From the NCBI GenBank assembly GCA_964364975.1, contig CAYIOH010000001.1, positions 1 to 36,637 on the forward strand: a stretch of DNA of 36,637 bases. Reading direction: 5' to 3'. Positions 8,828-36,629 of this stretch are shown piece after piece. The stretch is from an uncultured Bifidobacteriaceae bacterium. GTDB taxonomy: Bacteria; Verrucomicrobiota; Verrucomicrobiia; Limisphaerales; JADLHS01. Position 1 is the stretch's first letter; every line of letters starts with the position of its first letter. Under the pieces are notes generated by a model, which was given only the letters and a program-made list of their open reading frames with translations, did no database searches and had not been told where the DNA came from. A program made the position numbers and the translations under genes.

Positions 8828-8842
8828 GGACGGAAGGGTGGA

Positions 8843-8904
8843 GGTCAGAGATCAGAGATCAGAGGTCAGCCTTCGGTTTTCAGTCGTCAGTCGTCAGCCG
8901 TCGG
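8843..8904. repeat. Two heptamer arrays flanking a short core, intergenic and overlapping the GT4 stop codon
   Basis: GGTCAGA GATCAGA GATCAGA GGTCAG - ccttcggttt - TCAGTCG TCAGTCG TCAGCCG TCGG. The stop codon at 8894-8896 (TGA on the minus strand) is part of the second array. Confidence 0.85.
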
Positions 8905-15439: not shown

Positions 15440-16170
15440 GAGTGCTTCTGCGCAACGATGAATTGTGACGGGGCCAACCGGAGACGCCCCATCCAATGGG
15501 CTTTGCGGAGCGAGGGCTTGAGGAGGCGCCCCAGCCACGGGAACAGGTTGACGAATTTGTCGAGAATGCCTGTGCCGTACTCTTCGAGCACGTCAAAACC
15601 AGTCGTTGCCAACACCTCTGCCACATAGCCGGGATGATGACCGAATAGTGTTTGCGAGTATGGCTCGATGTCGCGATTGAACGGGCTGGCCGCCCGACCC
15701 ACGAGCCGCTGCAAAATTCGTTTCACGTTCCGTTTGTTGCTGTAGTTAAACACCAACCTTCCACCCGGTTTGAGCACACGATGAATCTCCGTCAGCGCCG
15801 TCGTTGGGTCGCCAAGATGGTGGAAGACGCGTACCATCAGGACGGCATCCAACGATCTCTCCGGGAAGGGAAGGTTGGCCACGCTGGCATCATGATATGT
15901 CGCGGCATTGCCATAAATCCTCTGGGCAGCTTGGCGAAGATTGCTGGCTGGCTCTACCAAATGGACTTGCTGATACTTGCCGACATAACAGTCCGCGAGG
16001 CGGCCAAAACCCGCGCCCAGGTCGGCAACGCTTGCGCCGCCCGGGAGACAGTGAGCCGCTATTAAGTGCTCCAGTTCATCCAAATACTTTTTCCCGGACC
16101 CTACCCAGAACTGCTCGTAATCCCTTCCTTCGTAACCTTTCCAATCCAAAGCTTGTATCTTATCTGCCAT
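15436..16170 (-). CDS. Class I SAM-dependent methyltransferase
   Basis: 244 aa. Motif I VADLGAGFGRL and post-I/II DAVLMVRVFHHLGDP...VLKPGGRLVF. Confidence 0.8.
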   Translation of the reverse strand: MADKIQALDWKGYEGRDYEQFWVGSGKKYLDELEHLIAAHCLPGGASVADLGAGFGRLADCYVGKYQQVHLVEPASNLRQAAQRIYGNAATYHDASVANLPFPERSLDAVLMVRVFHHLGDPTTALTEIHRVLKPGGRLVFNYSNKRNVKRILQRLVGRAASPFNRDIEPYSQTLFGHHPGYVAEVLATTGFDVLEEYGTGILDKFVNLFPWLGRLLKPSLRKAHWMGRLRLAPSQFIVAQKHS

Positions 16171-18767: not shown

Positions 18768-19595
18768 CTACATTGAACCCGAAAGCTCATCGGGCACAGC
18801 GAACAGGTTTTGCGCAGAGTGGTGCACGAAGTCCGGCCTGCCTGCCGCGTTCAGCTCGAAGACGCGATAATTGGCCCCAGCTAGGATGTCCGCTATCACC
18901 GAATCGAGCCTGCCTTCCAGGGATTCAAACATGATGAGTCTTGGCCGCTCCGCGCGAAGTAAAGCTGTGCTGCCGCGGAGCACTTCGACCTCGAAGTCTT
19001 CGACATCGATTTTGACGAGTCCGATGGACCGGTTCCGCCATAGGTCACGGAAGGAATCCAGCGGGAGGACCTGCGTTTCGATGTCATCGTCCGCCCTGAC
19101 TTGGTGAAGTGCGTTCGTCGTCTCCGGCCGGGATGTATTGCGGATGAACAGACGGCCTTCAGTGGCGCCGAGGGCCACGGGATAGAGTTGGTTCGTGGGC
19201 CAGCCATTGAATTCCCAGTTTCCCTTCAACCTGGCGAACGTCACGGGCGTCGGTTCAAAAGCAAATAGATTCTCGGGGCCAGCAACATCAGCGAGCAGAA
19301 GCAAGATGTGTCCTACGTTAGCTCCCACATCGATGATCACGTCATTCTTGCGAAGCCTCCGTCGGATGAACGTCAGTTCACGATGCTCCGGCCAGTCCGC
19401 GTAGATCAGAGCCGAAGAAACCACACAGTCTGCGTAGGCCACCAGCTTCGCGCCACTCGCGAGCAGAAGAGGCCGGGACCGTTTGACCAGCCGCTTGAAC
19501 AACTGCCAGCGAACCGCAGCCAGGGTCCGCGCCAGTCGTTGCCCCCGATTTCCAGGATTGCGCCAGATCGAGTTGAGGATGATGTGGATGCTCAT
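18768..19595 (-). CDS. FkbM family methyltransferase
   Basis: 275 aa. VIIDVGANVGHILLLLA...FAFEPTPVTFARLKGN...IGLVKIDVEDFEVEVLRG is the FkbM-family signature. Confidence 0.8.
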   Translation of the reverse strand: MSIHIILNSIWRNPGNRGQRLARTLAAVRWQLFKRLVKRSRPLLLASGAKLVAYADCVVSSALIYADWPEHRELTFIRRRLRKNDVIIDVGANVGHILLLLADVAGPENLFAFEPTPVTFARLKGNWEFNGWPTNQLYPVALGATEGRLFIRNTSRPETTNALHQVRADDDIETQVLPLDSFRDLWRNRSIGLVKIDVEDFEVEVLRGSTALLRAERPRLIMFESLEGRLDSVIADILAGANYRVFELNAAGRPDFVHHSAQNLFAVPDELSGSM

Positions 19596-23739: not shown

Positions 23740-24981
23740 TTAGGACAGTAATCCTCGCGCTGCTGCTTCAGCTTGTTCTACCGTGATGTCCAGTATGCAG
23801 TGGGCGCACCCAGCCGTACACTCCCGCATGCACGGCAGGCGTCCCGTCTTAGGGCGAAGCACAATGTGATCAACGCCCCAAGGTCGGAATCTCTCAGCAG
23901 AGTTAGCACTCCAAGCCCCCGACTCAGCGTGACAGCAAAACTCTAGGACTGGAACTCCACCCGCCGCAGCAAGATGCATCGGTCCACTGTCGTTGCCTAC
24001 AAAAAGCTTCGAGTGCCTCAGCAAGGCAGCGGTTCCTCGTAATGTAGCGCGTCCAACGGCATTGACGACTGCCGCCCCCAAGTTCTTTTCCAGTTTCAAG
24101 CCATATTCTTCCTCGCCAGGACCGCCCACAGCTAGAAGCCGACAGTTGTATCGCTCAAGCAGGCGCGCGCCTAACAGAACAAACCTTTCTATCGGCCAGC
24201 ACTTCCAGAAACAGCCGGCCCCTGGTGCCAATGCGATCAGCATATCATTGTGTTCGATACCTGCCCGAGATAAAAAGGTCCGGGCAAAGTCCTCGTCCCT
24301 CTCATCAAGCCACAGTTCTAAGTTGTCACTACCGACTTTCCCACCCAGAAACCGAACCAAATCCAGGTTGTGTTCGACTTCGTGTTTTCGGTCTTCCCCA
24401 AGAATCTGATGCGTGACTAGCCCGTCCAATCCTGATCCACAGGAAGCACCTTCTGAAAAGCGCCTTTGGGCATAAGCCGCGCGGCTAGGAGAGCCACTCA
24501 AATACATCAGGGAAATCGCATGATAACGATCAATACCCCATCGGGGGCATATCGCCAAATCAAACTTCCTTCGCCAAAGGCGATTCCCACAAAGACCCAA
24601 CGCGCGCAGATGCCGCGTTAACTGCGATGGAGGCCGGGGAGTATCTGGATCAAACGTTAGGACTTCATTTACGTAAGGGCAGTGTTCCACCAAGTTGTAG
24701 CAAACGGGCTTGACGACGAGCGTTATCCAAGCTTGCGGCACCGAGTGCCGCAACTCCCGCAACAACGGACTCGTCAGCACTAGGTCCCCAATATCATCCA
24801 GGCGAACCACAAGCACGCTCTTCGCTTGCTCCAGCCTCACCGCACCTTCTCGACCCCGCCGACAGGCAAGCCAGAAAAATGGCTCGGCGAGCCGTCTCAC
24901 AAACGTGGGGGATGTCGCTCGGGACGCGAGTCGGCGTGCTACAGGTATGATCGTCTCAACGGCTATTGACCCAAGAGTCAT
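23740..24981 (-). CDS. Glycosyltransferase family 9 (heptosyltransferase-like)
   Basis: The ORF is open to 25233, but the ATG at 24981 overlaps the upstream stop (ATGA). VLVVRLDDIGDLVLTSPLLRELR, IALAPGAG...KCWPIERF and LFVGNDSGPMHLAAAGGVPVL are GT9 hallmarks. Confidence 0.8.
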   Translation of the reverse strand: MTLGSIAVETIIPVARRLASRATSPTFVRRLAEPFFWLACRRGREGAVRLEQAKSVLVVRLDDIGDLVLTSPLLRELRHSVPQAWITLVVKPVCYNLVEHCPYVNEVLTFDPDTPRPPSQLTRHLRALGLCGNRLWRRKFDLAICPRWGIDRYHAISLMYLSGSPSRAAYAQRRFSEGASCGSGLDGLVTHQILGEDRKHEVEHNLDLVRFLGGKVGSDNLELWLDERDEDFARTFLSRAGIEHNDMLIALAPGAGCFWKCWPIERFVLLGARLLERYNCRLLAVGGPGEEEYGLKLEKNLGAAVVNAVGRATLRGTAALLRHSKLFVGNDSGPMHLAAAGGVPVLEFCCHAESGAWSANSAERFRPWGVDHIVLRPKTGRLPCMRECTAGCAHCILDITVEQAEAAARGLLS

Positions 24982-26099
24982 AGTGCATTCTCGACAACTT
25001 CGAGATATCGCTTCCAAGTATCCTCGCGCAGGCTCAACAGTCGCTCTCGCTCGCTCTCCTGATTGTCGAGCAGACAGTGCAGTTTGTCTTCCACGCCCCC
25101 TACTGTCGCGTCTTTGACATAGAAAACCGGTAATCCCACCGCTTCGACCATCAGCATTCGGGTGTCGGTTCCTACGCTCACCGACGGGATACCGATGCCC
25201 GCCATCGCCACGGCTGCGTGCAGGCGATTGCATATACCGACTTTTGCGCGCGCGACGATTGAAAAATACTCCTGCGAATTCTTCGGCAGAACCCGCGGTA
25301 TGTCACCATTCAGCGCCGAGGCTATTGCATATTCCTTTTGATCATGACACACAAAAAGCAATCTGTGGTTTTGGCGCAGGCTTGCGATCAGATTTCGCGC
25401 TGTACTTCTCCAAGCATTGGGATTAATACTCTGGCCAAAGTCGTAATGTCCCCCTCCCTCCATATAGTTTATCACCACGAGATCCCTGTCAGCACTTCCA
25501 TTGGTGAGTGCTTTTCCGGCAAGGAACGCGGGACAAGGGATAAGCGGACACGAGTGTTCCAAGAATTCAAAAAGACGTTTGGCAAGGCGGTCCCGTGCCG
25601 TGGTAGCTCGGCAATACGCCAAAATTCTCCCCAGATAAAGGGCGTCGTTCTCATTCTCGATGCGCTCGGGCTGTGCTTCCCAAGGAAAACAGGCGCCTGC
25701 ACCCAGATTCAAAACCGGGATGCCCTTATTGCTCAGGCGTCCAACAACGTGATGCCACAGCGGCTCAGCCCACTCGCAGCGCCAGCAGCCGAACCAAGCC
25801 ACTGGGGTGCCACACTGAACAATCAGATCGCAGGTTTCAAAGTGGCTGAACCTCAGGCCAGACGCTGCGCGTTCGATCAATTGAAACACATGCTGGCGAC
25901 CTCTTGGTAAGTAGCGCGCCAGTTGTGCAACCTGCACTGGGTGCCGGTGCGGGTAAACCGTTAGAGGTCGATGTTTGTTAATTGGAACGAACGTTACTAC
26001 TTGTTTCGAAAAAACATGCCTCAACAAAGAGCAGATGCCTTCCCGAATGAAGTCGTCACCGATATTGGTGTTCAACGTCGTAATTAAGCCAACGCGCAT
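24978..26099 (-). CDS. Polysaccharide pyruvyl transferase family protein
   Basis: 373 aa. MRVGLITTLNTNIGDDFI N-terminus and ICNRLHAAVAMAGIGIPSVSVGTDTR near the C-terminus are typical of CsaB/WcaK-type pyruvyl transferases. Confidence 0.7.
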   Translation of the reverse strand: MRVGLITTLNTNIGDDFIREGICSLLRHVFSKQVVTFVPINKHRPLTVYPHRHPVQVAQLARYLPRGRQHVFQLIERAASGLRFSHFETCDLIVQCGTPVAWFGCWRCEWAEPLWHHVVGRLSNKGIPVLNLGAGACFPWEAQPERIENENDALYLGRILAYCRATTARDRLAKRLFEFLEHSCPLIPCPAFLAGKALTNGSADRDLVVINYMEGGGHYDFGQSINPNAWRSTARNLIASLRQNHRLLFVCHDQKEYAIASALNGDIPRVLPKNSQEYFSIVARAKVGICNRLHAAVAMAGIGIPSVSVGTDTRMLMVEAVGLPVFYVKDATVGGVEDKLHCLLDNQESERERLLSLREDTWKRYLEVVENAL

Positions 26100-26191: not shown

Positions 26192-27196
26192 TCAGAACTG
26201 GAGCAAGCCGGCTGAGCGCGCCCACAGTAGAGTCTGGCTAATGCCCTCGCGCAACGGCATGCACGGCTTCCAACCGAGCCGTCGCACCGCGCCTTCCATG
26301 GCGAAGGCGCGGTGCACGCTTGGCCAAATCGGCGCAAGCGGATAACCCAGTTCGCCTGCGCCGCCTACGCCAAACCACCGCTGAATTTGTACCTGGAGAT
26401 TGACGTAAAACCAATCGCTCAACTTGCGCCGTCCGCACGAGAACGGAATCCTCATAGCATCGGCGCAGAAGTGGAACATCTCTTCAACAGTTGCGGCCTG
26501 CCCTACAAGATTTTCCACGCCCGCCTGAGTGCCCATACCCGACGCAATCAATCCGTCGGCCACGTCCTCATTCCATATCGGACTCCAATAAAACCTGCCA
26601 AACAGCGGGAGGTACTCCCATAGCATCCCGCGGTTCAGTAGAGCCCGCGCGAACTGGACAACGAAGCTATCCCAGCCCAGGCCATAGACATTGCCGATGC
26701 GCAAACAGATCGGCGCGATGCCATCACGAGCGAGTTGCAACACGTGTTTTTCCGCGATGATTTTGCTCTTGCCGTATGCCGTCAGCGGCCGGTAGGCACG
26801 TTCCGGCGGTGCGGGAACTTCCGACAGACGAAACGCGCCAGCCGCTTCGATGCTGCTCGCATAGACAAATCGGCGGGCGCCTGAGCGGCGCGCGAAGCTG
26901 GCCATCGCTTCCGTCCCACCGACATTAGTCGCCAGCAATTCTTCGAGCCGGCCGAAGTAGTCGAGCGATGCCGCTAAATGAAAGATCACGTCATAATTCG
27001 CCGGCGCTTCGAGTAAGTGTTTGACGGTGCTGACATCAGACAGATCGCCCGCGAAGTAGTCGAGTCGCTCATGCCGTAGCAGGCCGGACTTTTGCGGATC
27101 GCGTGTGAGCGCGGTAACTTCCCATCCAGCGTTGACCAGTTTGGGTAAAAACGTACGACCGACGACGCCGGTGCCACCCGTAACGAAGGCTTTCAT
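26192..27196 (-). CDS. NAD-dependent epimerase/dehydratase (extended SDR)
   Basis: The ORF is open to 27247. The ATG at 27196 overlaps the upstream stop (ATGA). MKAFVTGGTGVVGRTF Rossmann motif and YGKSK catalytic YxxxK. Confidence 0.8.
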   Translation of the reverse strand: MKAFVTGGTGVVGRTFLPKLVNAGWEVTALTRDPQKSGLLRHERLDYFAGDLSDVSTVKHLLEAPANYDVIFHLAASLDYFGRLEELLATNVGGTEAMASFARRSGARRFVYASSIEAAGAFRLSEVPAPPERAYRPLTAYGKSKIIAEKHVLQLARDGIAPICLRIGNVYGLGWDSFVVQFARALLNRGMLWEYLPLFGRFYWSPIWNEDVADGLIASGMGTQAGVENLVGQAATVEEMFHFCADAMRIPFSCGRRKLSDWFYVNLQVQIQRWFGVGGAGELGYPLAPIWPSVHRAFAMEGAVRRLGWKPCMPLREGISQTLLWARSAGLLQF

Positions 27197-28590
27197 GGTG
27201 CAGAAAGAATCGAGATAAGACCGGAGTGGTGGCGCGCTGGCGGGCAACGTTGCACGATGAGCGGCTGCTTGCCGCGCGGAGTTCTTGGGATTGAGGTAAC
27301 TTGCTCGATCGTGAGCTTCACGTCGCCGCCGAGCTTCTCACCAACGAGCCTGATGATGGCCGATTCATCCTCGCGCGTGAACCCCGGTAGCGGCACGACG
27401 CGCAATACCACACGTCCTGGTTCTTCCTGGACAAACTGGTGCGCGAACACAAGCCGGAACTCGTCGCTGTGGAAGTTAAGAGCCGAAATCGGCACTACGC
27501 GACCCTGCTGGCCAAGGAGAAAATCACTAAGCCGACCATCAATCGCAGTCAACACCAAGTGTGTGCGCTTGCACTGCGGGCAGCGGTTCCCGAGCGTTGC
27601 ACGGTCGCCCGTGCGATACCGGATAAACGGTGTGGCTAGATTCGCGAATCCAGTCAGCACGATTTCGCCCGATTCGCCGGGGTTCTGCACAGGGTGGCCG
27701 TCTTCACCGATCAGTTCGAGCACGCCGGATTGCGGCCAGTGGTGAAAAGTGTCCGCGTGCTCGCAACCTGAGGCGAACCCAGCAAGTTCAGACATCCCGT
27801 ACCACTGAAATATCCGTGCTTGGGGAAAGGCCGCCCTAAGAACCCCACTCTGGTCCGAAGTCAGCGTCTCCGACGCCAGCAGGAGCCCACGCACATCCGG
27901 CATTGCTCCGGGTGCGGGAACCAGTTTCGCAAAGGCCGTCGCCGTCGAGGGAAAGGCCACAATGAACTTGGGCTGGAACCCACGCACGCGCGACCACCAG
28001 TCGCAGGCTGCGCTGGCATCCAGCGCGTGGATCGAAAGATAAATGCGGCTAGGATCGCTTGACGGGCGGAGCAAGCCGCCTCCGGAGAATGCCCACGTGA
28101 GATCGAGCGCGCGCGCGCCCAAGTCGTAGCCGGCCCGGCGCCACATTGCGTGCCGCCACGCGTCAAAAACCGCGTCGTAGGTCTGCGCATCGACCATGAA
28201 ACGCGTCGGCGTGCCCGTGGTGCCGCCGGAAGTAATCGGTCGCAAAGTCTTACTCGGCCGATTCTCTGCAATGAACTCATCTCCTTGAGTGCGCAACTCT
28301 TCCTTGGTGAAGAACGGAAGCCCACACAGATCTTCCAACCGCTCCAGGCAACCGCAGAACCCAGCAGCCCGCAGCTTGCGGGCATGTCCGCGACAATGCC
28401 TGAACGCGTGTCCAAGCAAGTGGTTCAACTGGCGGAGTTGCCATGCCGCTATCCGCTCGGCTTCCCAGTGATCACTGCGCACGAGGAAAGCTGCCGTGCG
28501 CGAATACTGATCATGCCAGCACGACGGCACGGGTGCCAGTCGCCGCAACGCGGCTCCCGGTCGTCGGAATAATCCAATCAACTTCTTCAC
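27193..28590 (-). CDS. Adenylate-forming enzyme, phenylacetate-CoA ligase/CapK-like
   Basis: The ORF is open to 28617. The GTG at 28590 overlaps the upstream stop (GTGA). ITSGGTTGTPTRF (AMP-binding P-loop-like motif), YGMSE, YRTGD and a C-terminal PRTPRGK are typical of the PaaK/CapK/F390-synthetase family. Confidence 0.7.
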   Translation of the reverse strand: MKKLIGLFRRPGAALRRLAPVPSCWHDQYSRTAAFLVRSDHWEAERIAAWQLRQLNHLLGHAFRHCRGHARKLRAAGFCGCLERLEDLCGLPFFTKEELRTQGDEFIAENRPSKTLRPITSGGTTGTPTRFMVDAQTYDAVFDAWRHAMWRRAGYDLGARALDLTWAFSGGGLLRPSSDPSRIYLSIHALDASAACDWWSRVRGFQPKFIVAFPSTATAFAKLVPAPGAMPDVRGLLLASETLTSDQSGVLRAAFPQARIFQWYGMSELAGFASGCEHADTFHHWPQSGVLELIGEDGHPVQNPGESGEIVLTGFANLATPFIRYRTGDRATLGNRCPQCKRTHLVLTAIDGRLSDFLLGQQGRVVPISALNFHSDEFRLVFAHQFVQEEPGRVVLRVVPLPGFTREDESAIIRLVGEKLGGDVKLTIEQVTSIPRTPRGKQPLIVQRCPPARHHSGLISILSAP

Positions 28591-29420
28591 GTTGAAGCAT
28601 TCCTGGGGCGACCCCACCCGGAGACAGAAAACTCATATTCCCCCGAGGCAATCATCAGAAGGACCTGGAACACGACGAAAACTCTACCACGCCATCGCCG
28701 CCGCTTGCGGAGGGATCTGAGCATCCCGGGAGTGATACTGCGCCCGTGGGCAACATAGCCGCTCGTCGCCAGCAACTCGCGCAAGGCCTCCACAGTCCAA
28801 CGAGTGAGAAAATCCGGCGGATATCCAGTGCGACGGTCAACGCCGGGGAGCTTCAGCGGCCGGCGGAGACTCGGGGCCGTGATAAAAACCTGCGCTCGCG
28901 GAAGTCGGGCACGCAAGGCTGCCATAAATACCGCGGGTTGCGCCACACGGACGAGGCTTTCCAAAATAATCACGGCGTCAGCCTCCGACCAATCCGGCGG
29001 CAGTTCAGCGGGGTTGGCTGTCTGCATTGACGTGAAGCCATGCTTACGCAGTACGGAGACGTGAGAGGCAAGCGGGTCCGCCAAGCGCACCTCGTAGCCA
29101 AAGGACCTCAACTGCCATGCAAAACGTCCGGTCTCGGCGAATAGTTCCACAATCTCCGCGCCGGGGCTCAAGTTTCCTCGCACCCATTCGAGCGCCGCTT
29201 GCTCGTTTGGCGTCAGCCAAGTCTTGATCAGTTCGGGTGTGGCCCTTCCAAGCAAGTCATCTGCGTCCTCTGAAAAGTCAGGGTAAACCGGCCCGCTTAT
29301 CGGTTGGGGCTCGAGCCATTGCAACCCCGTCCGCCCGCAGCGAAAGTAAGCGCAGCCAGGCAGCCACTCGACCGCCTCCGCATGCGTTTCACGCCCCGTG
29401 ATAGGGTGTTTCAAGATCAT
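28587..29420 (-). CDS. Putative SAM-dependent methyltransferase-like protein
   Basis: The ORF is open to 29582. The ATG at 29420 overlaps the wzt stop (ATGA). [14 protein letters not shown]...VRLADP...[10 protein letters not shown] is weakly class-I-MTase-like. Function is tentative. Confidence 0.4.
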
Positions 29421-30778
29421 GAGGAAATTCGCCTCGAACTCCATGGAAGCAGCGGCGCGACCAGGCCGAGCCGAGCGTCGTTGACATCGGCGATAATACC
29501 GGCCACTGGTTCGATCGAAAAACTCGCGGCTTGATCCACTGAGAGCACCCCACACACCATCGGGATATCGATGCCAACCCAAAGGTAGTAGCGTCCACGG
29601 TTGAGCAGGTGAGCGGGAAACTCCACCTCGGAAACGTACGCGCCCGCTGGACGCGCTTGGAGTTTGCCTCCGAGCGAATCGCAGTCCGTCGTGGTTAACA
29701 CCACCGTGGTGTCCTGAGCGTGCAAACGGAAACCCAAACGCAATTGCGGCATGGCGGCAGTCAATTCGTAGGTCAGTCGCACACGGAAAGGTTCGTGGTT
29801 CGGCAAGAATGAGGAAGGATTGCCTTCTGAATTGAGAACTTCGACGGAGCGAAGAATCAACGGATGCTCGGCAGCTTTGAGGTTGAGCTTGCCGTTGTCG
29901 GAGTGCCGAGCGGCGCTGTCATTGAGGTAACGGGCGATCACTCTCGCGGGATCGCTCTGATCAGTCAACCGTCCAGCGTTCAGCAGAATGGCGCGAGAGC
30001 AAAGATTGCCAACTGTTCCCATGTTGTGGCTGACGAACAGAACGGTGCGTCCTTGCTGGTGGGCCACTTCGTCCATCTTACCCAAACATTTCTTCTGAAA
30101 CGACGTGTCCCCTACTGCCAGCACTTCGTCCACCACCAGAATTTCCGGTTCCAAATGCGCCGCCACCGCAAACGCCAGCCGCACATACATGCCGCTGCTG
30201 TAGTGTTTCACCGGCGTGTCCAGAAACCTTTCCACTTCCGCAAACGCCACGATTTCGTCGAACTTCTTTTTGATCTCCGCCCGGCTCATTCCCAGGATGG
30301 CGCCGTTCAGGAAGATGTTTTCCCGCCCCGTCAATTCGGGATGGAACCCCGTTCCCACTTCCAACAAACTCGCCACGCGCCCTTTGATGCGTATCTTACC
30401 CGTAGTCGGCTCGGTGATGCGGCTGAGAATTTTGAGCAGCGTGCTTTTCCCCGCGCCGTTGCGCCCGATGATGCCGACCACTTCGCCTTGTTTGACCTCG
30501 AAGGAAACGTCGCGCAAGGCCCAAAAATCTTCGGTTCGTGGAAGACTGGAGTTAGAAGACGGGAGATGGGAGCCGGGAGATCGAACCGAACTGCTATCTG
30601 CTATCTTCGACCTGCCAAAGCCCCAGAGGCGACGGGCGAGGGAGCGGGGAGCACAGAGCGCGGAGCCGGCCTTCTCGGCCAGCACGTCGCGCAGGGCGGT
30701 GTAGCGCTGCCGCTGGGCCTGGTGTTGCAGACGGTATTTCTTGCCGAGGTTCTCGACCGATATGATCGCTTCGCTCAT
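29417..30778 (-). CDS. wzt: O-antigen/polysaccharide ABC exporter ATP-binding protein (Wzt/TagH type) with C-terminal glycan-binding (Wzt_C-like) domain and a 42-codon repeat-derived insert
   Basis: The ATG at 30778 ([17 protein letters not shown]) is the family-typical start; the ORF is open to 30913. Walker [10 protein letters not shown], signature YSSGM, Walker B ILVVDE. A ~170-aa C-terminal beta-rich extension follows. The insert SALCAP...NSSLP coincides with the array at 30541-30666. Confidence 0.9.
30541..30666. repeat. Mosaic heptamer array (18 units = 126 bp = 42 codons) inside the wzt CDS
   Basis: GAAGACT GGAGTTA GAAGACG GGAGATG GGAGCCG GGAGATC GAACCGA ACTGCTA TCTGCTA TCTTCGA CCTGCCA AAGCCCC AGAGGCG ACGGGCG AGGGAGC GGGGAGC ACAGAGC GCGGAGC. 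Confidence 0.8.
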
Positions 30779-30866: not shown

Positions 30867-31558
30867 TCAGCGCTCCCTTTCGGCACGCCTGACCCACGAA
30901 TCGTGAATCTCAACGAATGTGGTGCGCAGATCCCTGGTGATGGTCCAACTGGGGTAGTGGGTCTTCATCTTGTCGAGGTTCGAGATGTAGCAGATGTGGT
31001 CGCCTTGCCGGTTTTGGTCCACATATACGTAATTCATTTTCTTGCCGGAGATTTCCGAGATCAAGTCAAAGGCTTCCAGAATGGAAACGGAGTTGGCGCG
31101 GCTGCCGCCCAGGTTGTAAACCTCGCCGCAGCGCGGCGACTCAATAAATCGGCGCATGAATTGCACGACATCGTGGCTGTGGATGTTGTCGCGCACCTGC
31201 TTGCCCTTGTAACCGAAAACCTTGTACGCGCGGCCCGCCAGGTTACACTTGATGAGGTAGCTAGGAAGCCGTGCAACTCGACGCCGCTGTGGTTCGGTCC
31301 CGTAAGGCAACCGCCGCGCAGGCAGCAGGCGGGCATCCCGAAGTAGCGGCCGTATTCCTGTACCATGACGTCCGCCGCCACCTTCGATGCGCCGAAAATG
31401 GAGTGCTTACTCTGGTCAATGCGGAAGGTTTCCCGGATGCCATCCGCGTAGGCCGGATCGGCATAGTCCCATCGCTGGTCGAGTTCCATGAGTGGAATCT
31501 CGTTGGGCGCGTCGCCATAAACCTTGTTCGTGCTCATGTGGACGAATGGGGCTATTGC
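30867..31558 (-). pseudogene. C-terminal two-thirds of an SDR epimerase (CDP-paratose-2-epimerase-like family), frameshifted
   Basis: Two overlapping ORF fragments (31061-31537 and 30867-31310). They read [20 protein letters not shown]...GASKVAAD...VELHGFL and then, in another frame, [31 protein letters not shown]...GDHICYISNL. The frame switch is near 31262. An in-frame TAG at 31559-31561 bounds the homology. Confidence 0.75.
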
Positions 31559-31570
31559 CTAGCTTTCGAC

Positions 31571-31739
31571 GGTGATGATGACGGAGTCACCCATCGGGAT
31601 AGAAGACACGGCTCTTGCTGGAAGATGGCGGATAGCAGATGGAAGATTGTTCCACTACTTCCCGTTTCGCTTTTCCAACTGTAATCTCTGGTCTTTGATC
31701 TATCATCTTCATACTTCCAACTCCCATCTTCGCGCGGCT
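31571..31739. repeat. Heptamer-periodic spacer between the wzm stop and the epimerase C-terminal pseudogene fragment
   Basis: GAAGATG GCGGATA GCAGATG GAAGATT GTTCCAC TACTTCC CGTTTCG CTTTTCC AACTGTA ATCTCTG GTCTTTG ATCTATC ATCTTCA TACTTCC AACTCCC ATCTTCG. GAAGAT-type units on the left and their complements (ATCTTC) on the right give imperfect dyad symmetry. Confidence 0.75.
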
Positions 31740-31744
31740 GGCGC

Positions 31745-32611
31745 TCAGATAACGTCTGCAAACGTGCGCTCCATCTTCCGGAAGTACCAGATACCTAGAA
31801 AGAGCAGCACAACCACCAGCGCTATAGAAAGACAGAACCCCGGCCAGTAGATCTTGCTGTGACCGCCTAGGATTGCCCAACGGAATCCGTCAATAACACC
31901 CACCATCGGGTTAAGGGAATAAATGGTGAAGAGAGTGCCGCCAAAGCGTTCACGGATGACCGAGCTGCTGAAGCCGACGGGCGAGGCATAAAGACCAAAC
32001 TGGACGAGAAACGGAATCACATAACGGAAATCACGGTACTTGACGTTGAGGGCGGTGATCAGAAGGCCCGGCCCAATGGCGGCGAGAAAGGCCAGCGCAA
32101 TGAACAGGGGCAGCGTCACAATGCGCCAATCCGGCCAGAATTGAAACCAAGCCATCATGGCCACCAGGATGCCAAAGGCGATCAGGAAATCTACAAAGCT
32201 GGTGATGACCGCGCCGGCCGGGATGATCATGCGGGGGAAATAGACTTTGGAGATGAGATTGGCGTTGCCCACCAGGCTCTGGCTGGCTGAGGACAGCGAG
32301 GTGGAGAAGAACATCCAAGGCAGCATGGCCGCGAAGACCATGACCGAGTAGGGGGCGGTGCCCTCAGTCGGCAGCTTCGCGACTTTGCCGAACACGACGG
32401 TCATGATGAGCATGGTCAGCAGCGGCTGGATAAGCGCCCACGCAACGCCAATGACAGTCTGCTTGTAACGGACCGCAATGTCCCGCCAAGCCAGAATGTA
32501 AAAGAGCTCACGGTAGCGCCAAAGGTCGCGCCAGTATTGGCGTTGCGTGCGCCCCGGTTCGATGATCAATTCGTGGGACACGATGGGGTTGGGAGCTAGC
32601 TCATGGTGCAT
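31745..32611 (-). CDS. wzm: ABC-2 type polysaccharide exporter permease
   Basis: WRDLWRYRELFYILAWRDIAVRYKQTVIGVAWALIQPLL is the Wzm/ABC-2 N-terminal signature, followed by 6 TM segments. The ATG at 32611 is proposed as the start. The ORF stays open to 32800 because it runs in frame out of the epimerase N-terminal fragment. Confidence 0.85.
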   Translation of the reverse strand: MHHELAPNPIVSHELIIEPGRTQRQYWRDLWRYRELFYILAWRDIAVRYKQTVIGVAWALIQPLLTMLIMTVVFGKVAKLPTEGTAPYSVMVFAAMLPWMFFSTSLSSASQSLVGNANLISKVYFPRMIIPAGAVITSFVDFLIAFGILVAMMAWFQFWPDWRIVTLPLFIALAFLAAIGPGLLITALNVKYRDFRYVIPFLVQFGLYASPVGFSSSVIRERFGGTLFTIYSLNPMVGVIDGFRWAILGGHSKIYWPGFCLSIALVVVLLFLGIWYFRKMERTFADVI

Positions 32612-32793
32612 GAAGCCGGGAAGTTCCCGCTGCAGGCGTTGCTGGTTCCAACGCGTGTCCCCATGCGGCCCGAAAAAAACCGCGCGCTGGTTGTTGGCCA
32701 CTCCGTGAATGGCATAACCCAGCTCCCGGGGAAAAAAGCGCCAACTTTGGACCCGATGAGGCCGGAGGAACCCGTCACGAGAAGCGTCTTCAT
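32597..32793 (-). pseudogene. N-terminal ~65 codons of the same SDR epimerase, frameshifted at a homopolymer and fused in frame to wzm
   Basis: MKTLLVTGSSGLIGS (frame of ORF 32596-32793), then FFPRELGYAIHGVANNQRAVFFGPHGDTRWNQQRLQRELPGFMHHEL (frame of ORF 31745-32800). The frame switch is at the GGGGAAAAAA run, 32728-32737. Confidence 0.7.
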
Positions 32794-32827
32794 GGTTCAC
32801 TTGTCATCAGCGATCCGTGGTCCGTCG

Positions 32828-33451
32828 TCAGTATTTGACGACGTAGTAAGCGAACTTAAGGACCTCGTTTTGGAAAGCAAGCAGCCCTTCCTCGTGCTGC
32901 CAATAGTTGGCCGCCGTGTAGTCGCTCGAGGCGACGGCCTCAGTGCGAATATCAACGCTCGTTCCGTTGAGCGCTTTGTGAAAAAGCCATTTCACGCGCC
33001 GCGTATGGAAAAGATCGGTGGGTATGATGAGTCGTTTGGCGTGGCTTGCCTTCACCCATCCCTGCACAGCCAAGGATTCATCGCGGGTGCTCATCACTCC
33101 GTTACCGATCTCGATCACGGCTTCAGGCGGCACCTGGTTGCTGAACAAAACCAACTTTGCGACGTGAGTATGCGGCAGGGTGATTCCCAATTCATCGGTA
33201 TAGTTGCTGCGCACGTTCAGCAGCAGGATTCGGGGTGCGAGTCCCTGCTGAAAAAGCCGCGCGGCTTCAAACGGGCGCGTGTCCAATCCGCCGCCCAAAA
33301 CCACGATAGCGTCGGCCTTTTCCAGCTTGTCATTGACGATCCAAGCGTCCGCTAAACCCCGCAAGATCGGGGCGCGGAAGAAGTATGCGACGAGGAGCAA
33401 TGCGCCGAAGGCGCAGGCGCATGAGACAGCTCCTTTGAAGATTTGTCGCAT
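32828..33451 (-). CDS. DUF218 (YdcF/ElyC/SanA-like) protein
   Basis: 207 aa. N-terminal TM helix, ADAIVVLGGGLDTRPFEAARLFQQGLAPRILL and ...THMPRA-like region (LFHTRRV) typical of DUF218. Confidence 0.7.
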   Translation of the reverse strand: MRQIFKGAVSCACAFGALLLVAYFFRAPILRGLADAWIVNDKLEKADAIVVLGGGLDTRPFEAARLFQQGLAPRILLLNVRSNYTDELGITLPHTHVAKLVLFSNQVPPEAVIEIGNGVMSTRDESLAVQGWVKASHAKRLIIPTDLFHTRRVKWLFHKALNGTSVDIRTEAVASSDYTAANYWQHEEGLLAFQNEVLKFAYYVVKY

Positions 33452-33477: not shown

Positions 33478-34743
33478 TCAGTTTTGTTGGATTGATGAGG
33501 CGGCTGCCGCTTTCGGCGGCGAAAGCGCTTCCAGTCTGGGAACAAGCCGTTCCACGATCTCATGCACGCGAGTTTGGAAGCTTTCGAACGAAAAATCATT
33601 AAGGCTGGCTGAAACAAATCCGCGAGGCCACTTCAGCGCCGCCAGGATTCCTTCCCGGATCTCTGCGGGGTTCCTCGGGTCAACGATGAATCCCAGCTTC
33701 CCACCGCCCACCACCTCGCAGCTCGCGTCGGCTTTGCTCGCAACGACCGGAATTCCACAAGCCATCGCTTCCAAGTAAACGATACCGAATCCTTCACCCC
33801 AGCCCGGCATCACGAAGGCATCCGCCATGCGGTAATGATCCACTTTTTCGTCCTCTGGGATTCGGCCGGCGAAAACGACCTGCGCGGGGTTGAGCGTGGA
33901 GCGTGGAGCGTGGAGGGTCGGGGAGTGGGGCTTCGATACCTCACCCAACCCTCTCCCCGATCGATGCGGAGAGGGCGATGAGTTAGCGCGCGCGCAGTCG
34001 GTCACGGAAAGGCCGAGTGATTGCGCCTTGTTCATCAAGCGCTCCCGGTCCGTTCCATCGCCGACGACGAGGTAGCAAAGACTTGGGATTTCTTTCGACA
34101 AATCAGGCAGAACTTCCATGACTCTGTCCACTCCCTTGTACCGTTCCTGCGCCGAAAGGCGTGCCACGGTCAGCAGGACTGTCCGGTCGCGCAGACAATA
34201 ACGGTCGAGCAGTTGCGAGTTTTTTGGGCCGGGGCGGAAAGCAGCCAACTCGATGCAGTTGGGCAAAATGAAAGTCCGAACGCCGTCCAATCGCGCCCAG
34301 CCCAGAAATCGCTGCTTCGTAAACTCGCTTACCGCAATCAGGGCGTTGATTCTCCTGACCAATCGATTGACCAGCCAACTGCGAGTCGGTTGCCACGCGT
34401 CAATGCCATGGATTACCAACGCGACCGGCGCACGGCAAAACAATCGCGCCGCCAATGCGACCGATAGCAGATTGATGTGGCCGCAAATCAGAAGGTCAGG
34501 GGTCGGAAGTCGGAGAACGGTGGTCAAAACCGTTTTGATATAGCGCAGTTTGCTGCCGACGCCGGAGGTGACGTAGTTAAGCTTCGTCGGCAGTGCGCCG
34601 GGCGGCTCGGGCATCAAGCGTGGAACAGCCACAACTTCTTCAACGTCCTGGGCCGCACAGAGCGCGGTCAGCAGATCGCGATTGAACTTCGCGATGCCTC
34701 CGAAACCGCCGAAGGCGTCCGTCACGAGAACCAGAATGCGCAT
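33478..34743 (-). CDS. Glycosyltransferase family 4 with ~40-codon repeat-derived insert
   Basis: 421 aa. MRILVLVTDAFGGFGGIAKFNRDL N-terminus; VMPGWGEGFGIVYLEAMACGIPVVAS C-domain. The segment VTDCARANSSPSPHRSGRGLGEVSKPHSPTLHAPRSTLNPA coincides with 33892-33982. The start ATG shares one base with the asnB stop (TGATG). Confidence 0.8.
   Translation of the reverse strand: MRILVLVTDAFGGFGGIAKFNRDLLTALCAAQDVEEVVAVPRLMPEPPGALPTKLNYVTSGVGSKLRYIKTVLTTVLRLPTPDLLICGHINLLSVALAARLFCRAPVALVIHGIDAWQPTRSWLVNRLVRRINALIAVSEFTKQRFLGWARLDGVRTFILPNCIELAAFRPGPKNSQLLDRYCLRDRTVLLTVARLSAQERYKGVDRVMEVLPDLSKEIPSLCYLVVGDGTDRERLMNKAQSLGLSVTDCARANSSPSPHRSGRGLGEVSKPHSPTLHAPRSTLNPAQVVFAGRIPEDEKVDHYRMADAFVMPGWGEGFGIVYLEAMACGIPVVASKADASCEVVGGGKLGFIVDPRNPAEIREGILAALKWPRGFVSASLNDFSFESFQTRVHEIVERLVPRLEALSPPKAAAASSIQQN
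33892..33982. repeat. Heptamer array (GAGCGTG)3... plus small hairpin, inside the GT4 CDS
   Basis: GAGCGTG x3 GAGGGTC GGGGAGT GGGGCTT CGATACC TCACCCA ACCCTCT CCCCGAT CGATGCG GAGAGGG CGATGAG. CCCTCTCC (33949-33956) pairs with GGAGAGGG (33968-33975). Confidence 0.8.
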
Positions 34744-36629
34744 CAGTTTCGAGTGAACCGATCGTAAACCTGCCTGGCCCAGCCACGAAGGCCGCGAGAA
34801 TTCGCGCGGGGTTGAGCGTTGAGGGAAAAGGTTTGAGAGTCGCGCAAAAGCCAGTCGCGGACCGGGACGGAAAAGCCGGTCTTGGGCCGGGCAAGCAGGG
34901 CAGCAGGGAGCGGAGAGCGGGGAGTAAGGGCCATGTCGCGCTTGGTCGGAGGCGTCTCGCTGGCGAGCAACGGAGCGACCGCGTGCAGGACCGCCACGTC
35001 CACCAGCGGCACGCGGATTTCCAGCGAGTGAGCCATGCCTGCCCAGTCCGAATCACGCAGGAGTTGGTTGCGCATGTACCAGCACATCTCGAGAGCACTG
35101 ACGCGCACGCGGCCAGAGTTCAGAGGACAGAAGTCAGAATTTGGAACTGATCGCCGATCTCTGATCGCCGATCTCTGAGAAAGCAGACCAGCGGTCAAAT
35201 TCAACAAGGCAAGGGTGTTGAGCTCTTCCCAGCCTTCGCGCACGAGGTCCGGCTCGAGCAATTCAGGCAGTTCCCAAGGCATGAACAGACCACGGCGGAG
35301 CAGGTAGGCATCGGCGTAGCTGGAGCCGTATTCGAGCAGCCCGGCGTATTTGGGCGAGGTGAAGCGATTGAGCACGGGGGTGGAAATCACACGAAGCGCG
35401 CGGCCAAGCGAACGGGCAAAAGGCAAAGGGCGAAGGGCCTTCACGAGGCGCGGAATTTCGCGAAAGCTGGGATAGCCGCCGAACAATTCGTCGCCGCCCA
35501 AACCGGACAGGGCGACCTTCAGCGAAGCGCGCGCGGCGGCGAAGCTGACGAAGTAGGTGTTGACGCCATCCGTGCTCGGCTGATCCATTGCGTCGAAAAG
35601 GCGATTAACGTGAGTTTGAAAATCTCGACGCGCGACCCAAATGGTCTGGTGTTGTGCGCCGTATTGGCGGGCGACGGCTTCGGCGAACGGGACTTCATCG
35701 TTGGCCGTCCCACGAAATTCCTCGAATCCCAGTGTGACCGTGCGCAAACGGCCGCCTTGCTCGGCGGCCAGCGCGGCAAGTGTCGTCGAGTCCAAGCCGG
35801 ATGACAGAAACACACCGACGGGGACATCGGCGATCAGGTGGTGCCGGATTGTGTCCTGGAGAGCGAAGCGCAACAAGTCGTGGAGTTGAGGGCTGGGGGC
35901 TGAGGGTTGAGAGTTCGAGCGTTCGGCATGCGAAAGGATTTCCGTGATTGAGCAGAATTTGCGCTCCCGTCGCCCGCCGCCCTGGCCAACCCAAAGCGTC
36001 GCACCCGGCGGCAAGGACCGGATGGTCTTGAACAGCGTGTAGGGTTCAGGCACGTGTCCCCACAGGAAGAAACCGACGTGCCCGGCCGGATCGGGTGTCT
36101 TCTCAATGTATCCGCCCGCGAGCAACGCCTTCACTTGCGAGGCCGCTCGAAATGTCCTGCCGTCATCCGCAAAATATAGCGGTTTGATGCCGAACGGGTC
36201 GCGCGCCAAAAGCAAGCCGCGTTGCTCGCCATCCCAGAGCGCAAAGGCATACATGCCGCGCAGATCGTTCATCATCGCCTCGCCTTTCTGCGCGTAGAGC
36301 CGGAGCAACACTTCCGTGTCGCTGTTGGATTTGAACACATGGCCTTGTTGTTCGAGCGCCGCGCGCAGTTCGCGGTAGTTGTAAATCTCGCCGTTGAAAA
36401 CGATCGCCAGTTGAAACTCCGGCAGCAGCATGGGCTGCGCACCGGCCGGGGACAGATCAATGATTGAAAGCCGGCGATGGCCAAGACCAACGCGGTGCAA
36501 AGGATCGAACCACTCTCCTGCCCCATCAGGACCACGCAGCGTCATGTGGTCGCGGATGGCGCGCAGTTCCCCGTCATTCACGCCGGGCGCGTCAGAGTTG
36601 TAGGCGAAGATGGCTGCTATGCCACACAT
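34743..36629 (-). CDS. asnB: Asparagine synthase (glutamine-hydrolysing) family amidotransferase
   Basis: 628 aa. MCGIA N-terminal nucleophile, HRRLSIIDLS, GEIYNYRELR, and the PP-loop VGVFLSSGLDST. Three clear repeat-derived segments and one tentative segment lie in the C-terminal half. Confidence 0.9.
   Translation of the reverse strand: MCGIAAIFAYNSDAPGVNDGELRAIRDHMTLRGPDGAGEWFDPLHRVGLGHRRLSIIDLSPAGAQPMLLPEFQLAIVFNGEIYNYRELRAALEQQGHVFKSNSDTEVLLRLYAQKGEAMMNDLRGMYAFALWDGEQRGLLLARDPFGIKPLYFADDGRTFRAASQVKALLAGGYIEKTPDPAGHVGFFLWGHVPEPYTLFKTIRSLPPGATLWVGQGGGRRERKFCSITEILSHAERSNSQPSAPSPQLHDLLRFALQDTIRHHLIADVPVGVFLSSGLDSTTLAALAAEQGGRLRTVTLGFEEFRGTANDEVPFAEAVARQYGAQHQTIWVARRDFQTHVNRLFDAMDQPSTDGVNTYFVSFAAARASLKVALSGLGGDELFGGYPSFREIPRLVKALRPLPFARSLGRALRVISTPVLNRFTSPKYAGLLEYGSSYADAYLLRRGLFMPWELPELLEPDLVREGWEELNTLALLNLTAGLLSQRSAIRDRRSVPNSDFCPLNSGRVRVSALEMCWYMRNQLLRDSDWAGMAHSLEIRVPLVDVAVLHAVAPLLASETPPTKRDMALTPRSPLPAALLARPKTGFSVPVRDWLLRDSQTFSLNAQPRANSRGLRGWARQVYDRFTRN
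34801..34842. repeat. Short heptamer array (about 6 units) near the 3' end of asnB
   Basis: TTCGCGC GGGGTTG AGCGTTG AGGGAAA AGGTTTG AGAGTCG. Encodes SQTFSLNAQPRANS. Same GnGTTGA unit family as 35883-35924. Confidence 0.55.
35114..35197. repeat. Mosaic heptamer array (about 12 units) inside asnB
   Basis: CAGAGTT CAGAGGA CAGAAGT CAGAATT TGGAACT GATCGCC GATCTCT GATCGCC GATCTCT GAGAAAG CAGACCA GCGGTCA. GATCTCTGATC (35156-35166) is the exact reverse complement of GATCAGAGATC at 8850-8860. Confidence 0.8.
35883..35924. repeat. Heptamer array (6 units = 42 bp = 14 codons) inside asnB
   Basis: GAGTTGA GGGCTGG GGGCTGA GGGTTGA GAGTTCG AGCGTTC. Occupies codons 236-249 exactly (ERSNSQPSAPSPQL), just upstream of the PP-loop. 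Confidence 0.75.

Follow-up and report, generated by a model that had tools for sequence, protein, structure and literature searches.

In the WzmWzt exporter of Aquifex aeolicus, the gate helix is an extended connection between strands beta1 and beta2 located at the interface of membrane and cytosol, where it lines the pocket proposed for undecaprenyl diphosphate (PMC6379404). A chain-end cap is either a chemical modification or a unique sugar; the part played by the carbohydrate-binding domain has also been described (PMC9445017). Heptanucleotide (heptamer) repeats are the most abundant long simple sequence repeats in bacteria, where they are mainly intergenic and where polymerase slippage has been proposed as their cause (PMC4692102, PMC4679880); a search of the literature on heptamer repeats in Verrucomicrobia found nothing specific. 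Here we describe a heptamer tract that lies inside the wzt gene of a 36,637-nt stretch of DNA (contig CAYIOH010000001.1 of assembly GCA_964364975.1; the whole stretch is referred to as the window). Its reading frame and a structural model show that the tract is translated, as a disordered loop rich in Ser, Pro and Arg. With a probability of roughly 0.6, we read it as a tolerated, decayed heptamer repeat in an ordinary functional exporter ATPase. The features of the gene are given below; the loci and proteins with which it was compared are designated by L and P numbers, respectively.

29417..30778, minus strand: wzt, 453 aa, intact, an ABC-transporter ATPase with a C-terminal carbohydrate-binding domain.
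30656..30778, minus strand: strand beta1 (residues 4-18, including K13 and Y15) and gate helix (residues 29-41), from the AlphaFold2 (AF2) model and the alignment.
30541..30666, minus strand: composite decayed heptanucleotide repeat tract, 18 x 7 nt, residues 39-80 in frame, predicted disordered.
30625..30666, minus strand: block 1 of the tract, GCTCCGC GCTCTGT GCTCCCC GCTCCCT CGCCCGT CGCCTCT, from DNA alignment.
30583..30613, minus strand: conserved core of the tract, GGCAGGTCGAAGATAGCAGATAGCAGTTCGG, with units NGAAGAT and AGCAGAT, from DNA alignment.
30541..30582, minus strand: block 3 of the tract, GATCTCC CGGCTCC CATCTCC CGTCTTC TAACTCC AGTCTTC, six C/T-rich units, from DNA alignment.
30443-30466, minus strand: Walker A motif GRNGAGKS, from the alignment.
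30122..30517, minus strand: nucleotide-binding domain core (ABC_tran, residues 88-219), from Pfam and the alignment.
29426..29860, minus strand: C-terminal beta-sandwich carbohydrate-binding domain, residues 307-451, from Wzt_C on residues 310-403, a confident AF2 model and Foldseek.

Analysis of the self-identity of the tract gave 55.5% at lag 7 and 53.6% at lag 14, compared with a window mean of 25.9% at a standard deviation of 5.6%; the other lags from 1 to 20 gave 20-34%, and lag 21 (three units) gave 41%. None of 20,000 shuffles reached 55.5% identity at lag 7, and among all 126-nt segments of the window this value was attained only by other heptamer arrays and by exactly 30541-30666, which is the exact local optimum of the period-7 signal. 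These 126 bp encode residues 39-80 (SALCAP...NSSLP), with an offset of 2 nt at most. The coordinates and the period of 7 proposed in an earlier note on this DNA were therefore confirmed, while the 18 units counted there turned out to belong to three or four different blocks, namely GCTCCSC x4, CGCCYNT x2, two odd units, the units TCGAAGA, TAGCAGA, TAGCAGT and TCGGTTC, and six units of the NNNCTCC type. Adjacent units agree at 2-6 of 7 bases, the best pair being TAGCAGA/TAGCAGT, and there are at most two near-identical neighbours; Tandem Repeats Finder detected only three short pieces of the tract. The TAG within ATAGCAG is out of frame in both of its copies. Since the conserved N-terminal block and the block containing FWAL and Walker A flank the tract in one frame, the tract must be translated.

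Sequence and model both indicate that the gene carrying the tract is an intact Wzt of the cap-reading kind. The start ATG of the open reading frame (ORF) aligns with residue M1 of the orthologues, and the product scored 84.7 bits against ABC_tran and 38.3 bits against Wzt_C (PF14524; Pfam cut-off 30.4), so that the Wzt_C search suggested in the earlier note came out positive. Walker A, the signature motif, Walker B and the H-loop (SHN) are invariant in the alignment with homologues, as are L11, K13, Y15, L29 and R30. The best match of known structure by sequence was A. aeolicus Wzt (E = 8e-66), followed by TarH and TagH, and the best fold match of the AF2 model in Foldseek was the full-length A. 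aeolicus WzmWzt (PDB 8dku, 7k2t and 8dne; E = 8e-38), with 422-448 aligned columns covering both domains. Together, an ABC domain, the gate-helix connection, the Wzt_C beta-sandwich and a Wzm permease encoded nearby place the protein among the Wzt family. No protein in the collection searched was more than 71% identical to it.

The AF2 model placed beta1 at residues 4-18, the helix at 29-41, a segment with a predicted local distance difference test (pLDDT) score below 50 at 42-76 and the beta2 strand at 82-96. Structure prediction, which the earlier note had proposed for this purpose, thus located the tract between gate helix and beta2, upstream of Walker A. Since the gate helix is the beta1-beta2 connection (PMC6379404), the model implies that the tract lengthens the return limb of a functionally important element. 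The number of residues before the FWAL/beta2 strand is about 28-33 in the solved minimal Wzt, TarH and TagH and 78-81 here. The loop itself has 49 residues; its length is 28 or 31 in the nearest two orthologues and varies from 18 to 54 among 22 aligned homologues. The segment from LRDV to W has 53 residues here and 22-67 (median 30) in 114 close homologues. A loop of at least 37 residues occurs in 22 of these 114 homologues, and long loops are frequent in the verrucomicrobial clade.

On these lengths, a clean insert of 42 codons relative to the orthologues, as first claimed, did not hold: 'SLARRLW', which lies within the claimed array, is ancestral, and the excess over the loops of the closest relatives (18-31 residues) is about 21 residues. 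Deletion of the 42 codons would restore the usual spacing when the solved Wzt, TarH and TagH are taken as the standard; within the subfamily it leaves 11 residues between LRDV and W, where the minimum is 22, and it would over-delete because the remaining loop is shorter than in any relative. An alignment of the orthologues at the array did show a longer loop in the window than in its nearest orthologues, and the site appeared as a loop of variable length and not as a discrete gap.

DNA alignments indicate that the tract is a mosaic of the ancestral loop and at least two in-frame expansions, mostly shared by descent with other verrucomicrobial wzt genes. The peptide 'SLARRLW' is homologous to SVARRVW in L001 and GRRLW in L003, both of which are free of arrays. 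Three units (21 nt, 'SALCAPR') have been added ahead of it and are common to P0013/L002, P0060/L088 and P0089/L089, and about six further units have been added on its 3' side. Accordingly, the first three units of block 1 are extra with respect to L001 and L003 while its last part is the ancestral 'SLARRLW', and the net excess of the tract over P0002 is 63 nt, or 9 units. The (GCTCCCC)n array of L002 is homologous to block 1 (39/44 nt, compared with 73-75% identity in the flanks) and is far more homogeneous than the tract of the window. The 3' two-thirds of the tract align base for base with the wzt loops of the verrucomicrobial loci L087, L092 and L093, and block 3 is homologous to CCCATCT-type arrays in related wzt genes.

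The 31-nt core is identical to L087 at 30 of 31 nt, while the whole genes are 60% identical; in a sliding comparison this level was matched solely by the ABC signature region. An exact 22-mer of the core is present in L091 and L092, and L093 and L094 lack the core or have a diverged form of it. L088 translates 13 nt of the core in another codon phase, which argues that the homology is at the level of DNA and that the peptide sequence is not what is conserved. Two other origins were rejected. A single insertion event of 42 codons was ruled out by the mosaic structure seen in the DNA alignments, and an origin of a 25-nt core as a dispersed repeat was ruled out by its single copy in the window (3 mismatches allowed) and by its occurrence elsewhere in wzt loops only.

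In the reading that we favour, Wzt would be the ATPase of a Wzm/Wzt glycan exporter that recognises the capped chain end via its C-terminal domain. Tracts of 7-nt units would be generated, and would grow or shrink, through slipped-strand mispairing. As 7 cannot be divided by 3, the frame of Wzt is kept only if the net change amounts to three units, and in coding DNA the survivors would be net three-unit changes with stop-free motifs. The surviving tract would then represent the ancestral loop plus three units before 'RRLW' and about six after it, later blurred by point mutation. Tolerant loops would collect such tracts, which point mutations would then freeze, and this loop is presumably tolerated because it is solvent-exposed and was already variable in length. 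Homogeneous units would make wzt prone to frameshifts; the window tract appears too decayed for frequent switching.

We asked how the tract varies between closely related sequences. A single near-identical contig was available for the comparison of lengths, L091 (ENA assembly ERZ1292633), which matched the window at 1658/1661 positions and carried a tract of the same length and sequence; the three single nucleotide polymorphisms all fall within an epimerase remnant between wzm and wzt. An assembly artefact was ruled out, as this independent contig reproduces the tract. In L092, the distance from the start codon to the EDFWAL block is 203 nt (2 modulo 3) and hence out of frame, and exactly one 7-nt unit is missing from the CCCATCT block with respect to L093, L087 and the window. 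Walker A of the same gene is interrupted by an insertion of about 100 nt between GIIG and NGAGKST. The opposite-strand translation of this insertion (…PGEMEVLHGSRGKQ…DESLFHGAGR) recurs at 49-288 of the L092 contig (the copy in wzt lies within 1318-1608), which indicates that a small repeated element has inserted in wzt. The L092 gene is probably decaying rather than switched off. Orthologous tracts also give rise to loops of different lengths.

These data bear on the possibility that the tract is a contingency locus, that is, a reversible ON/OFF switch of glycan export kept for its one-unit frameshifts, as in neuO of Escherichia coli K1, which is phase-variable and heptanucleotide-associated (PMC13001214). 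Its unit length is not a multiple of 3, it lies in the first fifth of wzt, tracts recur in this loop in 13 of 83 loci spread over several phyla, L092 is off-frame by exactly one unit, and the tract of L002 is much more homogeneous. In the window, however, slippage should be rare, given at most two adjacent near-identical units where a switch calls for a long homogeneous tract; L091 has equal tract length, L092 with its second lesion in Walker A resembles a decaying pseudogene, and most arrays of the window lie in genes without any obvious reason for switching. We therefore regard a contingency locus as unlikely, and a tolerated, decayed repeat remains our preferred reading.

Analysis of the 83 wzt loci, drawn from genomes and metagenomes, showed a period-7 segment between KxY of beta1 and W of beta2 in those 13. 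The density of arrays in the wzt loop was 1.6 per kb versus 0.072 per kb elsewhere in the same loci, a 22-fold enrichment that was still 22-fold among the array-bearing loci alone. The motifs vary (GCTCCCC, GGTCAGT, CCCCTCT, GAAAGGA, TCGGAAA, CTTCACC and CAATCGC), and the hosts include Verrucomicrobiota, Geobacter and other Deltaproteobacteria, and one cyanobacterium. The median loop is 57 residues with an array and 44 without. Arrays also lie immediately upstream of wzt in L016, L037, L046 and L072.

Some related loci carry further repeats. The contig of L002 begins within a 99-nt (GCTCCCC)n array (1-99) that ends just upstream of the wzt start codon, which suggests that assemblies break at heptamer tracts. 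The verrucomicrobial loci L004 (102-4572) and L009 (2109-3943) contain many period-8 arrays (TTTCAGCN) besides heptamers, nine of them within 4.5 kb in L004. In the orthologous cluster of L086, a gene for a 1106-aa asparagine-synthase/GT4 fusion contains long GGTCCTT/GGTCCAT arrays, one where it starts and one near its middle (205-312 and 2252-2510), and the wzt loop of this locus is the shortest seen, with 18 residues.

The recurrence of expansions at this single site could also mean that the loop is adaptive, a disordered segment beside the gate helix that tunes the recruitment of lipid-linked glycan or contacts the membrane, Wzm or the capping enzymes. The pocket proposed to bind undecaprenyl diphosphate is formed by the beta1-beta2 connection (PMC6379404), homologues of the verrucomicrobial clade commonly have long loops, and the core is strongly conserved. 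This is nevertheless hard to reconcile with peptides that differ wholly between lineages, with identical DNA read in different phases in different genes, with a segment that is of low complexity and predicted disordered, and with the 28-31 residues found in the nearest orthologues that share the same C-terminal domain and cassette. An adaptive loop is thus quite improbable in our judgement. A broader proposal, in which the gate-helix loop is a conserved landing site and the tracts serve as ON/OFF switches or evolvability devices for glycan export in free-living Verrucomicrobiota and some Deltaproteobacteria, seems slightly more plausible than that and a little less so than the switch considered above. 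If true, exporter phase variation would occur outside host-adapted pathogens, and the phase-independent 31-nt core would mark a DNA-level function of the tract.

Several points weigh against a repeat that is simply tolerated. Slippage as the generating mechanism is a step that we infer, and the 22-fold enrichment in the loop could reflect selection for tracts instead of mere tolerance. A core that is as conserved as the ABC signature between genes of 60% identity is not predicted by pure neutrality. In addition, co-expression of wzm and wzt is not assured, since 966 bp and the epimerase remnant inside this gap separate them.

The wzt tract is one case of a phenomenon that extends over the window and over the lineage, and its loop is a recurrent hot spot; the earlier note had seen neither point. 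At lags 3-12, lag 7 alone reached 0.7 in any 42-nt segment of the sequence. The window contains 19 period-7 segments compared with 0-2 in shuffles (about 0.5 expected), with period 14 next and other periods essentially absent; a feature that occurs at many loci per genome was here scored on this one 36.6-kb window of genome. Of 16 arrays, 13 are inside ORFs, at linkers or loops. The arrays outside wzt are the following.

6359-6382, 7936-7973, 8161-8262, 8841-8902, 9477-9536, 14172-14261 and 31677-31733: period-7 arrays.
32806-32832, 33700-33726, 33889-33930, 34899-34924, 35114-35178, 35415-35438 and 35887-35915: period-7 arrays.
9477-9536, among those above: array in the interdomain linker of a GT4 glycosyltransferase.
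14172-14261, among those above: array in the N-domain of another GT4.
Further placements: arrays in the C-terminal half of a GT2, at four amidotransferase sites and in a loop of the GT4 at 33478-34743.

Most of these arrays lie in frame within glycosyltransferase, carbamoyltransferase and amidotransferase genes, and adjoining blocks are often of unrelated motifs; the array at 8161-8262, for example, consists of CGGACCA x5, then TTTCTGC x4, then TGCTCCC x3. Units of the GCTCCCC/GGGGAGC type are found on both strands. Arrays with a stop-containing motif sit exactly at gene ends: the stop of the GT4 gene at 8894-10135 is the first TGA of the (CGACTGA)n array at 8841-8902, which runs on along the coding strand as (TGATCTC)n and reaches to within about 13 nt of the next start codon, the ATG at 8827. 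The orthologous clusters L001, L003, L084 and L085, which come from other lineages, have no period-7 segments, and this argues that the heptamer trait belongs to the genome and not to the gene cluster.

The GT4 at 33478-34743 has 43 residues (an insert of 40 aa) where array-free orthologues of 361-379 aa have a three-residue turn, and its other verrucomicrobial homologues carry different inserts at the same site. The insert (33860-34020, minus strand) is made up of two parts, a palindrome, CCCTCTCC gcatcgatcg GGGAGAGG (translated ...SPSPHRSGRGLGEV...), and then (CCACGCT)x3. The peptide 'GRGQGEVS' turns up again in the inserts of other, unrelated proteins, namely the GT4 proteins P0143 and P0145 and the Wzt loops of P0012 and P0037, which points to a small palindromic element that can land in frame in coding DNA as well. 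As regards a hairpin or MITE origin of the wzt tract, inspection by eye showed nothing there that corresponds to the palindrome. An array of the AAGATGG/GAAGATG type (31677-31733) directly follows the wzm stop (31745-31747), and its motif resembles the GGAAGAT/CGAAGAT units in the wzt loops of L094, L093, L092 and the window.

Arrays after the wzm stop and just upstream of wzt, together with a core that is conserved independently of codon phase, would fit a tract or core that acts as a nucleic-acid signal, such as a template-strand G-quadruplex, a protein-binding direct repeat or an element of translational pausing or coupling; G-quadruplexes can form in G-rich heptamer repeats (PMC4692102). 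The tract showed no RNA structure beyond chance, its fold being weaker than that of 188/200 shuffles (z = +1.47), and Rfam gave zero matches across the window. The motifs, moreover, vary widely by lineage and are mostly not G-rich, and the core is not retained in L093 and L094. We consider a DNA- or RNA-level element very improbable, the least likely of the readings weighed here.

Pfam and NCBIfam scans showed that the window is a single large glycan-assembly cluster in which all substantial ORFs are on the minus strand. Its products, other than those described above and the cassette described below, are as follows.

In the window, minus strand: WecA/WbaP-like initiating transferase.
In the window, minus strand: GDP-mannose dehydratase and epimerase.
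In the window, minus strand: several GT4, GT2 and GT9 glycosyltransferases.
In the window, minus strand: carbamoyltransferase, deacetylase and FemAB-like acyltransferase.
In the window, minus strand: asparagine-synthase-type amidotransferase.
15436-16170 and 18768-19595: two clear methyltransferases (Methyltransf_11 and FkbM types).
31745-32800, minus strand: wzm, the ABC-2 permease partner (ABC2_membrane 59 bits).

The wzm product is 49-66% identical to the Wzm encoded beside wzt in other loci. Between wzm and wzt, at 30867-31537 (minus strand), two overlapping ORF pieces in different frames match the C-terminal half only of an NAD-dependent epimerase/dehydratase (Pfam profile positions 136-240), so that the remnant is a frameshifted, 5'-truncated gene. 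In L085 an intact epimerase gene lies upstream of wzm. Genes for 23S_rRNA_IVP/bAvd four-helix-bundle proteins adjoin wzm and wzt in the related loci L088 (3336-3743 and 5873-6280) and L090 (195-575), and in L088 wzm and wzt also flank a Uma2-family gene. In this clade, the junction of the two genes seems to be a site where insertions readily occur.

Downstream, wzt is followed by five genes that we refer to as the cassette.

28587..29420, minus strand: cassette gene 1, methyltransferase-fold gene, 277 aa; its ATG overlaps the wzt stop as ATGA.
27193..28617, minus strand: cassette gene 2, CapK/PaaK-like adenylate-forming enzyme (AMP-binding 36 bits).
26192..27247, minus strand: cassette gene 3, SDR-type NAD-dependent epimerase/reductase; likely start ATG at 27196, with an ATGA overlap with the previous stop.
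24978..26099, minus strand: cassette gene 4, polysaccharide pyruvyl-transferase-like (PS_pyruv_trans 55 bits), syntenic.
23740..25233, minus strand: cassette gene 5, GT9 heptosyltransferase-like; a GT9 is at the same position in L084-L086, with 29-33% identity.

The ATGA overlap of the wzt stop with the next start, pointed out earlier from the sequence, is real, and the 4-nt overlap recurs in five of six loci (the window, L001, L003, L085 and L086). L084, L085 and L086 have wzt and the cassette genes in the same order, and L003 and L001 share this order in part. The CapK-like gene, which is syntenic in L084, L085, L086 and L003, matched an AMP-dependent ligase of the DVU_1553 family at 1e-33, under the cut-off of the NCBIfam model. 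The GT9 ORF overlaps the pyruvyl-transferase-like gene by 256 nt and its first ~135 residues match no profile (the NCBIfam heptosyltransferase match begins at 136-140); the true start is probably further downstream. By tblastn, the methyltransferase-fold gene was found in 5/5 loci where the C-terminal domain of Wzt shares 63% identity or more with that of the window and in 0/81 loci where this identity is at most 36%.

The regional similarities of Wzt itself were compared between the long-loop verrucomicrobial group and the short-loop cassette group, with intervals given for long-loop minus short-loop similarity. The first 38 residues showed 70% similarity to the long-loop and 50% to the short-loop group (95% interval of the difference 12 to 27 points), the nucleotide-binding domain 79% and 77%, with no clear difference (-0.8 to 4.8 points), and the C-terminal domain 25% and 67% (-47 to -37 points). 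This fits a C-terminal domain and cassette that would have been swapped as a module into a resident wzt; unequal rates are the alternative.

The product of the first cassette gene was modelled with a pLDDT of 86.3 as a Rossmann-like methyltransferase fold preceded by a small beta domain (residues 1-37). In fold it came closest to the NDP-sugar C3-methyltransferases KijD1, TcaB9 and MtmC, and the top 50 Foldseek matches are nearly all S-adenosylmethionine (SAM) methyltransferases, with E down to 5e-11. The family has 17 members, of which 3 have a precomputed match to PF13489, and its profile matched 2avn, a methyltransferase-related protein of Thermotoga (E = 1.9e-4), as one of 6 PDB sequences at E <= 1. 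The suggestion that the gene is methyltransferase-like is thus upheld by fold comparison and not by profiles. Two observations count against a conventional methyltransferase. Motif I is atypical, ELFAETG in place of GxGxG, with E92, F94, E96 and G98 invariant in the family and the motif aligned to LGGGTG of 2avn; and Methyltransf_23 scored 17.2 bits against a cut-off of 27, with no Pfam methyltransferase family reaching its cut-off. The NCBIfam scan gave no match for the 277-aa protein.

It has been proposed that this protein and Wzt form a terminator/exporter pair. The loci compared above support the proposal as a genetic association, and the gene proves to be one of five that are co-conserved, with folds that are not those of WbdD. 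Taken alone as the chain terminator, the 277-aa protein would O-methylate the non-reducing end that the C-terminal domain reads, in the style of E. coli O8 or A. aeolicus. Its class I methyltransferase fold, its translational coupling to wzt and its strict linkage to this type of C-terminal domain agree with this, and methyl caps are a known class (PMC9445017). Its best folds, on the other hand, act on nucleotide sugars, its motif I is the aberrant one, WbdD appeared neither among the 6 PDB sequences matched by the family profile nor among the top 50 folds, four more genes are co-conserved, and the window encodes other methyltransferases (15436-16170 and 18768-19595). No kinase domain, as expected of a WbdD-type terminator, was found in any ORF of the window in the Pfam and NCBIfam scans. 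A lone methylating terminator is therefore doubtful. Given the other methyltransferases and the carbamoyl- and pyruvyl-transferases, a methyl cap made by the 277-aa protein is one possibility among several. Tentatively, and at somewhat less than even odds, we propose that the cassette as a whole would make and attach the cap read by this domain type, likely a dedicated modified sugar rather than a bare O-methyl group. The linkage of cassette and domain is seen directly in the loci compared by sequence, and the chemistry of the cap is what we infer.

The locus indicates that large disordered insertions are tolerated in a well-studied exporter immediately behind the gate helix, to which recruitment of the lipid-linked substrate is ascribed, and that 7-nt repeats, usually deemed intergenic curiosities, can be translated within many enzymes of one cluster. 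With one loop affected in so many loci and one natural one-unit frameshift, it provides a testable case for the switching of surface glycans by slippage in environmental bacteria. That one subtype of the Wzt C-terminal domain goes together with a cassette of five genes is a new pairing, and it points directly towards a new chain-end cap. Annotation is affected too: heptamer tracts make proteins longer, produce low-complexity 'inserts' and cause assemblies to break.

Comparison with the A. aeolicus WzmWzt (PDB 7K2T, 8DKU, 8DNE and 6M96) showed the same domain order of beta1, gate helix, nucleotide-binding domain, hinge and beta-sandwich, and an adjacent ABC-2 permease in both. A. aeolicus Wzt has about 28 residues before the beta2 motif while the window Wzt has 78, and the C-terminal domain of the latter is of a different subtype, as the HMMER alignment stops in the first strands at residue 347. 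The Aquifex cap is a 3-O-methyl mannose or rhamnose (PMC9445017). In the Wzt-WbdD systems of E. coli O9a and O8 and in the Kdo-capped systems of Klebsiella and Raoultella, the cap-making genes are linked to the transporter (PMC9445017, PMC3482155). Unlike O9a and O8, no WbdD-like kinase/methyltransferase with a coiled coil was found in the window, which instead has the conserved five-gene cassette; unlike Klebsiella and Raoultella, none of its proteins matched a Kdo-transferase family in the Pfam scans. TcaB9, KijD1 and MtmC resemble the 277-aa protein in fold (E = 5e-11, TM 0.62 over ~300 columns), and the latter differs from them in its 10-13% identity, in being ~125 residues shorter, in having only two N-terminal Cys and in its motif I, ELFAETG.

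The neuO gene of E. coli K1, which encodes a capsule O-acetyltransferase, carries its heptanucleotide tract towards the 5' end of the coding sequence, and this tract is long, perfect and known to switch. The window wzt is like neuO in having a 7-nt tract near the 5' end of a surface-glycan gene that is in frame only at some unit numbers. Unlike that of neuO, the window tract is degenerate, has at most two similar neighbouring units and shows no change of length in one near-identical contig. The cyanobacterial STRR, the GGGNATC repeats of Xanthomonas and Nostoc and the TAACTGA repeats of Beggiatoaceae are head-to-tail 7-nt units at many loci with mixed adjacent motifs, as are the arrays of the window, and such repeats vary in length and sequence among relatives, as here (PMC4692102, PMC4679880). 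The known heptamer repeats are described as mainly intergenic, whereas 13 of 16 arrays in the window are inside ORFs and translated; the host here is a probable verrucomicrobium, and one protein loop is a recurrent target.

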